Shown: piece after piece, positions 10,254-19,334 of the stretch
Layout of the letters: every line of letters starts with the position of its first letter
How positions within the stretch are numbered: the first letter of the stretch is position 1
Origin: Escherichia coli
Lineage (GTDB): Bacteria; Pseudomonadota; Gammaproteobacteria; Enterobacterales; Enterobacteriaceae
DNA length: 64,000 nt
NCBI RefSeq assembly: GCF_003334255.1
Contig: NZ_QOWU01000012.1
Direction: 5' to 3' (one strand)
The notes under the pieces: generated by a model
Database searches by the model: none
What the model was told of the DNA's origin: nothing
What the model saw: only the letters and a program-made list of their open reading frames with translations
Position numbers and translations under genes: made by a program

Positions 10254-11060
10254 TTAGCGATCTTTACGCCACGCATCCGCCGTCAATGCCTCGCCAAAAT
10301 GACCGGCAATCAGCCGTTTGGTGAGTTCATGCAGCGGCGATGCCAGCACATCCGCGGTGCTGCCTCGCTCGACAACCTCGCCCTGATGCATCACCAGCAC
10401 CTGGTCGCTAATGTGCTTCATCATTCCGATATGCTGGGTAACATAAATATACGAAATGCCCTGTTTTTCCTGTAATTCCAGCATCAGATTAATCAACTGC
10501 GAACGCATCGACATATCCAGTGAAGCGAGGGCTTCATCGGCAATAATGACTTTTGGGCGCAATATCAGCGCGCGCGCCAGACCCAGACGCTGTTTTTGTC
10601 CGGGTGCCAACATATGCGGATAGTAACTGACGTGATCCGGTAGCAGCCCAACCATACGCATCGTTTCAATAATCTGTTTGCGACGCTGTTCCGGTTCCAG
10701 GTCGGTGTTCAGGCGCAGTGGAAAATCCAGAATTTGCGAGATACGTTGACGGGGATTCAACGAGGTCGAAGGATCCTGAAAAATCATGCGAATACGCTGA
10801 CTGCGGAAGGAATAATCGCCAAAATGCAGTGGATGATCGTCAATCAATAACTCGCCGCTGGTAGGCTCTATCATTCCCGCCAGCATTTTTGCCAGCGTGG
10901 ATTTACCCGAACCATTCTCGCCAATAATCGCCAGTGTCTGGCCTTCACGTAGCGTAAAGCTCAAGGGTTTTACCGCTTCTACGGTCTGACGACGAAACCA
11001 GCCGGTCCGGTAGCGGAACGTTTTACTTAAATTACGCACTTCAAGCAGCGTTTCGATCAT
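10254..11060 (-). CDS. sapF: ABC transporter ATP-binding protein SapF
   Basis: 268 aa; Walker A GENGSGKST, ABC signature. Confidence 0.93.
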   Translation of the reverse strand: MIETLLEVRNLSKTFRYRTGWFRRQTVEAVKPLSFTLREGQTLAIIGENGSGKSTLAKMLAGMIEPTSGELLIDDHPLHFGDYSFRSQRIRMIFQDPSTSLNPRQRISQILDFPLRLNTDLEPEQRRKQIIETMRMVGLLPDHVSYYPHMLAPGQKQRLGLARALILRPKVIIADEALASLDMSMRSQLINLMLELQEKQGISYIYVTQHIGMMKHISDQVLVMHQGEVVERGSTADVLASPLHELTKRLIAGHFGEALTADAWRKDR

Positions 11061-11061
11061 C

Positions 11062-12054
11062 TCACTCTTTCTCCATGTTCAGCGGGAAATGACAGGCATA
11101 GAGATGATTTTTCGCCCCCGTCAAACGTGGCGTCACAATGCATTCTCGTTGTGCATACGGGCAACGTGGCCCCAGACGACAACCAATCGGTAACTGTTCC
11201 AGCAGTGGGATAGCGCCGGGCAGCGTATTGAGGCGACTTTTATGCGGCATCGCGCTGCCGAAGTCTGGTATCGCGCGGATCAGCGCCTGGGTATAAGGAT
11301 GATGTGGCATCGTCACCAACTCCTTACTCGGCGCGGTTTCCACTGTTTGACCGCAGTAAAGCACGTTAATTTTATCCGCCCATTGGCTAAGCATTTGTAA
11401 GTCATGGCTGATAAGCAAAATAGTGGTATTGCTGTTTTGGTTGAGACGCGTCAGCAGGCGAAAGATTTGCGCCTGGGTTGTTGGCTCCATTGAGTTGGTC
11501 GGTTCGTCAGCAATCAGCAGACGCGGTTGATTCGCCAGTGCAATGGCTATCATCACTTTCTGACATTCACCTTCGGTCAACTCATAGGGAAAACTGCGCA
11601 TCGCATCTTTGTGATCTTTAATCCCCACGCGGTGCAGCAGTTCAATGGCACGGCGTTTGCGCCAGCCAAAACGCTGCCACCAACGGCCTTTATAGGTCCA
11701 GGCTGGGATGTTTTGCATCAACTGGCGGCCCACACGTTCTGAAGGGTCAAGACACGACTGCGGTTCCTGGAAAATCATCGACACGTTATGGCCAACCAGT
11801 TTGCGCCGTTCGCGTGCGGAGAGACGCAGCAAATCGATATCATCAAAACGCATACGGTCAGCAGTAACACGCCAGTTATCTTTATTCACCCCACAAATCG
11901 CTTTCGCAATCAAACTCTTGCCGGAACCGGATTCACCAACAAGACCGCGGATTTCACCTTCGGTTAAGGTCATACTTACCCGGTCGACGGCTTTAACCCA
12001 CTCATCACCGGTTTTAAATTCAATGGTCAGGTTACGAATATCGAGTAATGGCAT
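11062..12054 (-). CDS. sapD: ABC transporter ATP-binding protein SapD
   Basis: 330 aa; Walker A GESGSGKS; 1-bp gap to sapF. Confidence 0.93.
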
Positions 12055-16227: not shown

Positions 16228-17613
16228 TTACGTTTCACTCACCGGCGTTCTGTCACCATCATACAACGGCACTTTGCGATAGCGGCGGATCAGATACCAT
16301 AAATATGCGCCGCCTAACGAAGCCCATACCAGACCGAGTGTCAGTGACGTTGACTCGAGGTTAACCCACAGCACACCCACCGTCAGCGCGCCAACCAGCG
16401 GCATCAGCAAATAGTGGAAGTGATCCTTCCAGCTTTTATTCATTCCTTTACGCCGCCAGAAATGATTAAACACCGACAGATTCACGAAGGTAAACGCCAC
16501 CAGAGCACCGAAGTTAATTAACGCTGTGGCGGTAACTAAATCGAAGAACAGCGCCGACAACGCGACAATCCCGACCATAATGACGTTGAGTGCCGGAGTC
16601 CGCCATTTTGGGTGCACATAGCCAAACACCCGCTCCGGAAACACATTGTCACGCCCCATCACATACAGCAGACGCGACACGCTGGCATGTGAAGCCAGGC
16701 CAGAGGCTAACGTGTTCACAAACGTGGTGCAGAGGAAAATCGACTGGAAGAGCTTGCCGCCGACGTACAGCGCAATTTCAGGCAGTGCGGCATCCGGATC
16801 TTTAAAGCGGCTGATATCGGGAAAGAACAGCTGCATAAAGAACGACGCCGCGATAAAGATAACGCCACCGTAGACCGCCGTCAGGAAGATGGCTTTCGGG
16901 ATCACGCGTGCGGCGTCCGGCGTCTCTTCCGAAAGCGTGGTCACCGCATCGAAACCGAGGAAGGAGAAACAGACAATCGTCGCCCCGGTAATAATCGGGA
17001 TCAGGTGCGCGTTCTCGCTGATAAACGGCTGAAGTGACCAGACGGTGCCAACGCCTTCTCCTTTATGCAGTCCCTGAACTACCAGGAAGATAAACACCAC
17101 CATGATGGAGATTTGCACCAGTACAAACAGGGTATTGAAGTTAGCGACCAGGTTGACGCTCTTCAGATTCGCGGCGGTTAAAATGGCGACGAAGGTTACC
17201 ACCCACACCCACGGCGGCACTTCCGGGAAGAGGGCGGAGAGATAGATTTTCGCCAACAAGACGTTAATCATCGGCAAAAAGAGATAATCCAGCAGCGATG
17301 ACCAGCCGACCATAAATCCGACGTGCGGGTTAATCGACTTTTGCGCGTAGGTATAGGCCGAACCGGCCTCCGGAAACTGGCGAACCAGTTTGCCGTAGCT
17401 GATAGCGGTAAACAGCACACCCGCCAGCGCCAGCAAATAGGACGCCGGAACGTGACCGTCGCTAATGCCGGAGACAATACCAAAAGTATCAAATACGGTC
17501 ATCGGCGTGAGATAGGCCAGACCCATCATCACCACCTGCCACAATTTCAGTGATTTTCGCAGACGGGTTTTGCCGGGTTGCGCAGCAATATTCAGTGGTG
17601 AATTAATAGCCAT
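16228..17613 (-). CDS. puuP: Putrescine importer PuuP (APC family)
   Basis: 461-aa product from internal ATG (ORF track 479 aa); 12-TM amino acid/polyamine permease. Confidence 0.9.
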
Positions 17614-17915
17614 AATTGCTGCCTCCCCTGCGTAATAAGGTTTGCGGTCGTGTCGACCTGAAATCAAACCTGTTTAGCAAGGGAAGCAAAGGGGGCGGAG
17701 TCCAGTCAGTAGCAGGAGGGGCGCATACGCAGCCTCCCTCGCCATGCGGGGATTTAATCATCGGCATCATCTCATTTCCTCGTCACAGTCTTAATCGTTA
17801 ACGGAAGCCCGTTGCCGCCCGCGCTCCATAACGCGACATCCGGGAAATGTCTGGATTACCAGCAAATGTCAGGCCTGGCTCCGCTCAGGCCGATGAAACA
17901 ACCCCGCAAGGGGTA

Positions 17916-19334
17916 TTACGCGTTTTTCAACATCCACTCAATTTCTGTTTCTGTGATGAGGCGCTCAAACTGCAACAGCTCATCATTTTTACAGGCGTGA
18001 TAGACATGGCAGAAGCGTTCGCCTAAATAGCGGCGCAGGTGATCATTCTCGATAAACTCACCCAGGGCATCGCTCTGGCGAATCGGAAAGGGTAAGCCTT
18101 CCTGTTCCAGCCCGTTGCCTTCGACTTCTTCCTGCAACGGCAGCTCGTTATCAAGGCCATGCAAAATACCGGCAAAAATCGCTGCCATCACCAGATATGG
18201 GTTGGCATCGGCACCCGCCACGCGATATTCCACGCGGTGATTATGACGGTCGCCGCACGGAATACGCAGGGCGACGGTGCGGTTGTTATGGCCCCACGAC
18301 GCCTGCGTCGGCACATACATTCCCGGCTGGAAGCGGCGATACGAGTTCACGTTTGGTGCCAGCAACGCCATCGACGACGGCATCAGGTCAATCATCCCGG
18401 CGAGCATCTTTTTCAGCAGCGGCGAATCTTCGCCTTCCGCGTCAGAAAGCACGTTCTCGCCACGATTATTTTGCATACTGATATGGATATGCATTCCGCT
18501 GCCCGCGTGCTCTTCATACGGCTTCGCCATAAAAGTGGCGTGCATCTTATGCTTTTCTGCCATCAGACGCACCAGGCGTTTTAGTGCCAGCGCATCATCG
18601 CAGGCTTCCAGCACGTTATCAGTATGGTAAAGGTTGATTTCAAACTGACCCGGCGAGGCCTCAGCGACCGCGCCATCTGCCGGAATCAGCTGTAACTGCG
18701 CCAGTTCATCAATATCATTGAGCACGTCGGCGAAGTGGTTGAGGTTATCAACGGAGTAAACCTGGCTTTGTGTATTGCGGTCATCGGTGCCAGGCGCGCA
18801 GGGCGGTTGCAGATACCCTTCAGCGTCGCGCTGGCGATCCAGTAAATAGAACTCCAGCTCTACCGCTACGACCGGGAACAATCCGCGCTGGCGCAGCTGC
18901 TGCCACAGGCGGTTAAGAACGTTCCGCGGCTCAACGTCAAAGGGAGCGCCATCTTCATCGACCATGGTCAGGAGCATCTGACCGATAAACTCTGGATCGG
19001 CGGCAGAAGGAGTTAAGGAACCGAGAACAGGAACACAGGTACGATCCGGCTCGCCCATTTCCTGACCCAGACCTGCTTCTTCTACTACGTTGCCCAGAAT
19101 ATCCATTGCAAATACCGAGGCCGGGAAATAACACCCTTTCTCGAGCTTCTTCAGGCTTGAAACAGGAATACGCTTTCCACGGAAGCAACCATTTAAATCG
19201 GTAAGTAAAACATCAACATATTGCGTATTCGGGTAGCGCTCCAGGTAGCGTTTCACTTCCTGCGTAAAGGCGCTACCCCGCCTCTCTTCTGACTGCTGAA
19301 CAAAGTTCTCTACTTCAACGATATTGGTTTCCAT
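17916..19334 (-). CDS. puuA: Gamma-glutamylputrescine synthetase PuuA
   Basis: 472-aa product from internal ATG (METNIVEVENF...); glutamine-synthetase-like fold. Confidence 0.92.
   Translation of the reverse strand: METNIVEVENFVQQSEERRGSAFTQEVKRYLERYPNTQYVDVLLTDLNGCFRGKRIPVSSLKKLEKGCYFPASVFAMDILGNVVEEAGLGQEMGEPDRTCVPVLGSLTPSAADPEFIGQMLLTMVDEDGAPFDVEPRNVLNRLWQQLRQRGLFPVVAVELEFYLLDRQRDAEGYLQPPCAPGTDDRNTQSQVYSVDNLNHFADVLNDIDELAQLQLIPADGAVAEASPGQFEINLYHTDNVLEACDDALALKRLVRLMAEKHKMHATFMAKPYEEHAGSGMHIHISMQNNRGENVLSDAEGEDSPLLKKMLAGMIDLMPSSMALLAPNVNSYRRFQPGMYVPTQASWGHNNRTVALRIPCGDRHNHRVEYRVAGADANPYLVMAAIFAGILHGLDNELPLQEEVEGNGLEQEGLPFPIRQSDALGEFIENDHLRRYLGERFCHVYHACKNDELLQFERLITETEIEWMLKNA

Follow-up and report, generated by a model that had tools for sequence, protein, structure and literature searches.

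Adjacency of sapABCDF and the puu cluster in Escherichia coli as a probable lineage-specific juxtaposition at a variable pspF-sapA junction

The sapABCDF operon of Escherichia coli, which encodes an ATP-binding cassette (ABC) transporter, lies next to the puu genes for putrescine import and degradation. This neighbourhood was examined in a window of 64,000 nucleotides (the whole stretch of DNA analysed, from contig NZ_QOWU01000012.1), and in particular in the segment 10254-19334, which spans exactly the sapF stop to the puuA start. The adjacency of sap and puu is probably no functional module: separate transcription units seem to have come to lie side by side in one lineage, at a pspF|sapA junction whose content varies. 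A coherent polyamine-handling unit, as implied by the original prediction, is not supported: the adjacency is found only in Escherichia, approximately 19% of E. coli have lost puu but kept sap, no match to the PuuR box lies near sapA or ymjA or downstream of puuA, and sapABCDF has its own σ70 promoter, listed by genomic SELEX (systematic evolution of ligands by exponential enrichment).

The segment is 100% identical across 9,081/9,081 bases to E. coli chromosomes, including the K-12 MG1655 record (megablast). The gene map was obtained by transferring the RefSeq annotation of the MG1655 record (locus coordinate + 1253 = window coordinate) and agrees with the list of open reading frames (ORFs). 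On the minus strand lie sapFDCBA, ymjA, puuP, ymjE and puuA, and puuDRCBE diverge from them on the plus strand. The genes considered here are as follows.

10254-11060, minus strand: sapF, ABC ATPase, last gene of sapABCDF (RefSeq, 100%; NF011692, 588.9 bits against a cutoff of 452)
11062-12054, minus strand: sapD, ABC ATPase (RefSeq, 100%; NF011674, 752.9 bits against a cutoff of 627)
12054-12944, minus strand: sapC, permease (RefSeq, 100%; NF011691, 610.6 bits against a cutoff of 379)
12931-13896, minus strand: sapB, permease (RefSeq, 100%; NF011690, 679 bits against a cutoff of 432)
13893-15536, minus strand: sapA, periplasmic substrate-binding protein, first gene of the operon (RefSeq, 100%; NF011689, 1164 bits against a cutoff of 560)
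15849-16094, minus strand: ymjA, 81-aa DUF2543 protein, own transcription unit (RefSeq; Pfam PF10820, E = 9e-50)
16228-17613, minus strand: puuP, putrescine/H+ symporter (RefSeq; 64% identical to its paralogue PlaP)
17603-17767, minus strand: ymjE, 54-aa upstream ORF overlapping the puuP start by 11 nt (RefSeq)
17916-19334, minus strand: puuA, glutamate-putrescine ligase (RefSeq)
19546-20310, plus strand: puuD (RefSeq; passes its NCBIfam equivalog cutoff)
20337-20894, plus strand: puuR (RefSeq; passes its NCBIfam equivalog cutoff)
21169-22656, plus strand: puuC (RefSeq)
22658-23938, plus strand: puuB (RefSeq)
23976-25241, plus strand: puuE, γ-aminobutyric acid (GABA) transaminase (RefSeq; passes its NCBIfam equivalog cutoff)
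25361-26338, minus strand: pspF, the next gene after puuE (RefSeq annotation)

Over the studied coordinates, the annotated K-12 segment fabI-ycjD-sapFDCBA-ymjA-puuP-ymjE-puuA/puuDRCBE-pspF has the same genes in the same order and on the same strands, with identical protein sequences. Much of the layout given in the original prediction stands on this basis: the gene identities and their order are correct (100% identity to annotated E. coli), puuDRCBE are divergent (plus strand, 19546-25241), and ymjA is the sole annotated gene between sapA and puuP, with spacers of 312 and 133 nt on its two sides. The neighbourhood is contiguous, as had been stated, but it measures 14,988 bp between the stop codons of sapF and puuE instead of roughly 16 kb, and the small ORF ymjE between puuA and puuP had gone unmentioned. 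Each of the five co-oriented sap genes (binding protein, two permeases and two ATPases) passes a Sap-specific NCBIfam equivalog. The puu cluster is complete, with puuP, A, D, R, C, B and E in a divergent layout and 100% identical to the RefSeq-named proteins; no dedicated NCBIfam model was passed by PuuA, PuuP or PuuB.

The distribution of this arrangement was followed from the sap side by a SapA scan in which a single genome represented each GTDB species and flanks of at most 10 kb were taken on both sides. The scan listed 80 loci under approximately 24 genus labels, and the K-12 proteins were run against these loci by tblastn. Among the 80 listed loci, puu adjoins sapA only in E. whittamii, besides the K-12 type, and the 77 non-Escherichia loci gave no match to puu or ymjA in their sapA upstream flanks, which mostly measured 10 kb. 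Conservation across the Enterobacteriaceae, which had been proposed as a check of the functional reading, was therefore not observed from the sap side (0/77), nor was it from the puu side, where five cassettes of other genera lie elsewhere and none of them has sap nearby (0/5). Restriction of the adjacency to Escherichia is one half of what the original prediction had named as its refutation, the other half being a lack of co-regulation.

What adjoins sapA in other lineages varies. In 35 of the 80 listed loci pspF lies less than 300 nt from sapA without any insert (other Buttiauxella species than B. noackiae, discussed below, have pspF abutting sapABCDF), and in 29 the gap between the two genes holds 1.5-7.5 kb of unrelated cargo; there are also five loci with gaps of 300-1,500 nt, seven without pspF within at least 9 kb and three too short to judge. 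At least 36 of the 77 non-Escherichia loci (L006-L082; L-numbers denote locus records) carry different inserts, or no pspF nearby, at this junction. The cargo sampled has no relation to polyamines: Klebsiella has a DHA2 transporter of the major facilitator superfamily (MFS), an M20 amidohydrolase, a 769-aa protein without family and regulator(s); Kluyvera has a type-1 fimbrial operon; and C. amalonaticus has a tyrosine-recombinase island. Since the cargo between these conserved core genes differs by lineage, the site between pspF and sapA is variable, and what Escherichia carries there is one alternative of many. Regions of genome plasticity show the same conserved flanks (here pspF and sapA) with lineage-dependent cargo. 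The Escherichia cargo differs from them in having no integrase, tRNA or flanking direct repeats, and a recombinase occurs at this site only in C. amalonaticus.

PuuA orthologues with 72-88% identity were found in Buttiauxella noackiae, Kalamiella, Cronobacter, Serratia, Chimaeribacter, Erwinia and Pantoea, and five of their genomic contexts were read.

Buttiauxella noackiae: purL-mltF-[puuBCRD<>puuA-puuP]-tadA
Cronobacter turicensis: cassette adjoins fhlA/hyp
Kalamiella: cassette adjoins a TonB receptor and an esterase
Serratia fonticola: [puuB-puuR<>puuA-uORF-permease]-sbcB, where uORF is an upstream ORF
Pantoea: his operon-epimerase-[puuB-puuR-puuD<>puuA-uORF-permease]...sbcB

In these five contexts, sap, ymjA and puuE were each absent from the vicinity (0/5 for all three), and the Serratia and Pantoea cassettes also lack puuC, unlike that of E. 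coli. The seven-gene E. coli cluster is thus itself composite. Homologues of ymjA are widespread in Enterobacterales (78-85% identity), and those of Yokenella, Raoultella and Pantoea stand in unrelated contexts; the Raoultella copy lies approximately 130 kb from sapA on the same contig. As the puu sites are scattered and ymjA lies elsewhere, the pspF-sapA segment of Escherichia is a mosaic in which puuE and ymjA are combined with a portable puu cassette. Membership of ymjA in the puu cassette was considered and rejected, because no YmjA match was present in 5/5 other puu loci and its homologues occur in unrelated contexts. A gene for a cold-shock-domain protein comes after the ymjA homologue in Raoultella and Pantoea, whereas the Yokenella homologue stands among enzymes of cyclic di-GMP metabolism. 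The PuuA and PuuP proteins of Kalamiella (Erwiniaceae) are 84-85% identical to those of E. coli, and the Pantoea proteins 74% (PuuA) and 63% (PuuP), a contrast that favours mobility of the cassette.

The two systems also part company within the genus. Among 5,426 complete E. coli genomes, the sap region was matched in 5,423 and the full sap-puu stretch in 4,359-4,367. In genomes without the full stretch, which include sequence type 131 (ST131) and other extraintestinal pathogenic E. coli (ExPEC), the match ends at window position 16331. Approximately 1,045-1,057 of the 5,426 genomes have a common deletion, which fuses the 3' end of puuP to the 3' end of puuE and leaves sapABCDF and ymjA intact; its junction was established by alignment and by direct reading in ST131 (L002, 19965-20256).

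16332-25182: deleted interval from puuP to puuE, 8,851 bp, missing in approximately 19% of the complete E. coli genomes; the junction shows ACCA microhomology

The annotation of the ST131 chromosome accordingly reads sapFDCBA-ymjA-(108-nt puuP 3' fragment)-pspF. A distant-mode search with puuP gave 1,057 genomes in which the best match was the paralogue, at 60-80% identity, so no second copy of puuP exists in them. Sap and puu are therefore not gained and lost together: about 1,050 genomes keep sap without puu, and sap is retained whether puu is present or not. Two further lineages, Escherichia sp. MOD1-EC7003 (L003, 9425-9535) and 'E. coli' SCPM-O-B-8794 (L005, 9205-9440), have the order pspF-ymjA-sapA with no puu remnant; their homology to K-12 breaks off within the ymjA-puuP spacer and starts again at the stop codon of pspF. 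These remnant-free lineages represent either an independent complete loss or the state before insertion. Loss of puu in B2 has already been published; the gene order (standard annotation) and the exporter role of Sap (2016) were likewise known.

The regulatory sequences of the two systems were located as follows.

15537-15600 (end approximate), minus strand: conserved stretch upstream of sapA, with the blocks AGTnnGATAnnCT ... ATTATGCG (alignment)
15641-15671, minus strand: inverted repeat GTTGAACAG-N13-CTGTTCAAC with perfect 9-nt arms in the sapA leader (direct reading)
15753-15779, minus strand: σ70 promoter for sapABCDF, ATGACA-15-TTTAAT (genomic SELEX, PMC3946193; unique match in the window)
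15785-15813: repetitive extragenic palindromic (REP) element downstream of ymjA, the inverted partner (29 nt, 90% complementary) of the REP at 25311-25339
17901-17914, minus strand: terminator-like hairpin directly after the puuA stop (consensus scan only)
19378-19564, plus strand: predicted PuuR operator region with three AAAATATAATGAACA matches, at 19378, 19473 and 19550 (pattern search)
25262-25339: REP elements between puuE and pspF (repeat search; REP112a-b in the published listing)

The blocks AGTnnGATAnnCT ... ATTATGCG are kept in Salmonella, Citrobacter, Enterobacter, Yokenella and Buttiauxella, where the neighbour of sapA is pspF, which argues that the proximal control region of sap predates its present neighbourhood. 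Similarity to loci that never had puu at this place stops approximately 45-60 nt upstream of the sapA ATG. The genomic SELEX study lists a 'constitutive' RpoD promoter for sapABCDF in the sapA-ymjA spacer (PMC3946193). Between this promoter and the sapA start codon lies the inverted repeat GTTGAACAG-N13-CTGTTCAAC, which recurs in Escherichia sp. MOD1-EC7003 with a single mismatch in one arm; a role as operator or as RNA hairpin is conceivable. Although sap, ymjA, puuP and puuA share one strand, ymjA, two REP-containing spacers and the separate SELEX promoter stand between them.

Operators for PuuR were sought with AAAATATAATGAACA, which we take to be the 15-mer recognised by this repressor and which reportedly goes back to Nemoto and colleagues in 2012. 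A perfect copy lies at 19550, and copies with one and two mismatches lie at 19378 and 19473, respectively; these three putative operators, in the puuA-puuD spacer and the first puuD codons, are the only matches with up to two mismatches in the 64 kb. With up to three mismatches there are eight matches in the window against 2.1 expected by chance. Sites that sap might share with puu were not found: no match with up to three mismatches occurs in 5326-19377, which includes the regions upstream of sapA, ymjA and puuP.

The published Puu pathway cluster with its PuuR repressor has the same divergent puuAP / puuDRCBE layout as the window (Kurihara et al., 2005; Nemoto et al., 2012; as cited in PMC9068703 and PMC9951944), and no difference was seen within E. 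coli, the PuuR-box matches lying in the puuA-puuD spacer and the first puuD codons. The sap frames overlap or abut (overlaps of 1 to 14 nt; sapC shares 1 nt with sapD and 14 nt with sapB), which fits one operon with translational coupling. The original prediction had mentioned later reports of Sap as a putrescine exporter, and rightly so: SapBCDF has been published as a putrescine exporter in E. coli (Sugiyama et al., 2016, J Biol Chem 291:26343, as cited in PMC12772348 and PMC11968103), and both RefSeq and the NCBIfam models for SapB, C, D and F use the name 'putrescine export ABC transporter'. Putrescine export by SapBCDF was also demonstrated in Proteus mirabilis, in a paper without any mention of puu (PMC12772348), and the function of Sap is thus independent of a neighbouring puu cluster. 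The same source describes an older role of SapABCDF in the transport of antimicrobial peptides in Salmonella and Haemophilus (PMC12772348). The operon studied here is, like this published system, a five-gene ABC operon of the Opp/Dpp type.

A history consistent with these observations can be proposed. The order in the Enterobacteriaceae, taken as ancestral, is pspCBA<>pspF-sapABCDF-fabI, with pspF ending approximately 90-190 nt from sapA, and the pspF|sapA junction repeatedly receives lineage-specific cargo. In Escherichia this cargo is a three-part mosaic of ymjA, the puu cassette and puuE. The PuuP-type cassette, puuBCRD<>puuA-ymjE-puuP, is self-contained, with its own repressor PuuR and operators: PuuP imports putrescine, PuuA, B, C and D together with PuuE degrade it via γ-glutamyl intermediates and GABA, and PuuR acts as repressor through operators that lie within the puuA-puuD spacer of 211 bp and the first puuD codons. 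The sapABCDF operon is transcribed from its own σ70 promoter and ancestral proximal upstream region, and SapBCDF exports putrescine. The units would presumably answer putrescine status independently, their proximity having no mechanistic role. By a rough estimate, approximately 17 polyamine loci among approximately 2,600 transcription units would yield about 0.2 near-adjacent pairs (at most one unit between them) by chance, so that one such adjacency is statistically unremarkable.

Several points weigh against a lineage-specific juxtaposition. The route by which the puu segment arrived at the site remains a proposal, as composition and repeats give no mark of it. A search for direct repeats bounding the puu segment returned only REP-type inverted copies, there are no mobility genes at the segment, and the G+C content of puuC-puuE is 0.55-0.58 compared with approximately 0.49-0.53 for the psp flank and a range of 0.49-0.56 over the sap genes. 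As evidence of a foreign origin this composition was considered and set aside, the rise in puuC-puuE being too weak; nor does the region contain a tRNA according to an Rfam gathering-threshold scan including the tRNA family (ARAGORN was not run), so that integrase, tRNA target, flanking direct repeats and atypical composition, the hallmarks of a horizontally acquired mobile island, are all missing. The 80-locus sample was capped in size and is without E. albertii, E. fergusonii, E. marmotae and Shigella. PuuR might bind sapA weakly or in a non-canonical manner, and AAAATATAATGAACA with up to two mismatches matched the puu cassettes of other genera only once, in Kalamiella, which makes the comparative test uninformative and suggests that the operator has diverged. 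The adjacency is also kept in approximately 80% of E. coli and in E. whittamii and is therefore old within the genus. Finally, in one transcriptome within the expression evidence, all of it from published data, sap and puu fall together, which would fit a common putrescine response. In that study a ΔspeB mutant with low putrescine has lower transcripts of puuB, C, D, E, P and R (log2 fold change -1.2 to -3.1) and also of sapB, C, D and F (-1.3 to -2.2), and addition of putrescine to this mutant raises ymjA by +3.0 (8-fold), sapF by +2.0 and sapB by +1.2 (PMC11968103).

These transcript data, together with the retention of the layout in most E. coli and in E. whittamii and the fact that all three functions act on putrescine, favour a selected neighbourhood, in which export by sapBCDF, import by puuP, catabolism by puuA-E, and ymjA would form a co-regulated supra-operonic unit of putrescine homeostasis. 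The authors of the transcript study place sap within a 'putrescine homeostatic network' (PMC11968103). Such a unit is nevertheless unlikely. In the same ΔspeB comparison the housekeeping neighbour fabI is likewise lower (-1.9), changes of 4-fold or greater affect more than 450 genes, and fabI rises by +1.6 when putrescine is added to the mutant (PMC11968103); with fabI and hundreds of genes moving alike, the joint response of sap and puu appears real but non-specific. In the wild type, 1 mM putrescine caused no significant change in puuA, puuP, puuD, puuB or ymjA, the genes covered by this comparison, which included no sap gene (PMC11968103). Under sodium fluoride, ymjA moved opposite to puu, the puu genes being up and ymjA being listed with the down-regulated, Nac-associated genes (PMC10100675). 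A selected unit also fits poorly with the lack of PuuR boxes at sapA and ymjA, with the separate σ70 promoter and ancestral leader of sap, with the retention of sap in the roughly 19% of E. coli from which puu is deleted, and with the fact that no other genus has the adjacency, whether viewed from sap or from puu. Co-inducing the importer and the exporter of one compound would, moreover, amount to a futile cycle. The speF-potE pair is established as a case in which a transporter and an enzyme for one polyamine likewise lie side by side. Its genes, however, share one promoter and one transcript, whereas sap and puu comprise at least four transcription units with the unrelated ymjA, REP elements and separate promoters.

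A chance juxtaposition in the ancestor of Escherichia might have been co-opted later, with sapBCDF, ymjA and puu sharing a putrescine-dependent control that lacks a canonical PuuR box. Such control might, for example, act through polyamine effects on nucleoid proteins or on local supercoiling, or through transcription that continues beyond puuP, and ymjA would then be an unrecognised player in putrescine homeostasis; this is considered distinctly improbable. It is very improbable that the adjacency is ancestral to the Enterobacteriaceae, with puu lost from this site in all other genera and the Escherichia layout surviving as a relic. Deletion of puu at this site is demonstrably easy, given the B2-type deletion with remnants and the two Escherichia lineages without puu, and vertical descent would lead one to expect about the PuuA identity that is seen with Cronobacter and Serratia (80-83%). 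Against this, the 35 loci in which pspF abuts sapA span many genera, have a similar spacer of approximately 90-190 nt and contain no puu remnants, and the genera that do bear puu carry the cluster at other, mutually different sites. In Serratia and Pantoea it lies by sbcB, and the presence of yoeI-plaP between his and sbcB in E. coli points to that place as an older home.

A functional module at this locus would have provided a simple genetic handle on the balance between putrescine import, breakdown and export in E. coli. With a lineage-specific juxtaposition, little about function can be read here from which genes are neighbours, since sap and puu met only in Escherichia and are gained and lost independently. 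The regulation of sap is then to be studied on its own promoter, B2/ExPEC strains offer natural 'sap without puu' controls, and the puu cassette behaves as a portable unit.

The window is K-12-like over sap-puu, yet it is not strictly MG1655. Compared with that strain, its fabI-ycjD spacer is 106 bp shorter (262 nt, 9572-9832, against 368 nt), and it is strain G1/2 that its puuP-puuE stretch matches at 100% identity. Variation is likewise seen on the other flank of sap. In K-12 only ycjD (DUF559) lies between fabI and sapF (compare window 9572-10253), and ST131 has a 7.5-kb island there (L002, 6451-13943) that encodes a TetR regulator, an adaptor and pump of the resistance-nodulation-division (RND) type, an outer-membrane factor and an MFS efflux pump. 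Promoter-like sites in the scan occurred at chance level (10 against 9.5 expected). Terminator-like sites numbered 21 against a shuffled expectation of 11.0 and lay mostly inside coding sequence; of these, only the hairpin after puuA was used. An Rfam scan of the 64-kb window gave no match within 10254-19334, and its sole match was the McaS/IsrA small RNA at 62885-62980 on the minus strand (116.6 bits).

The permeases of the puu cassettes are of two types. Those of Serratia (L085, 9047-13323) and Pantoea (L086, 7230-13216) are 78-81% identical to E. coli PlaP and only 63-66% identical to PuuP, and the cassettes of E. coli, Buttiauxella, Cronobacter and Kalamiella have PuuP-type permeases that are 80-87% identical and occupy four different sites. 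Between sbcB and his, E. coli K-12 has just yoeI-plaP (L088 = NC_000913.3 2078000-2094000; 7705-9115). There appear to be two lineages of puu clusters, judged from these sequences, and plaP may be a relic of an older puu cluster at his-sbcB. In four cases a small upstream ORF (20-77 aa) shares exactly 11 nt with the beginning of a putrescine permease gene: E. coli puuP (ymjE, window 17603-17767), E. coli plaP (yoeI, L088, 9053-9115), Pantoea (L086, 11704-11868) and Serratia (L085, 11730-11963). E. coli YoeI begins with the motif MGQFF, which is also contained in the Serratia upstream ORF. Such an ORF, with its constant 11-nt overlap, could be a conserved leader that controls translation of the permease.

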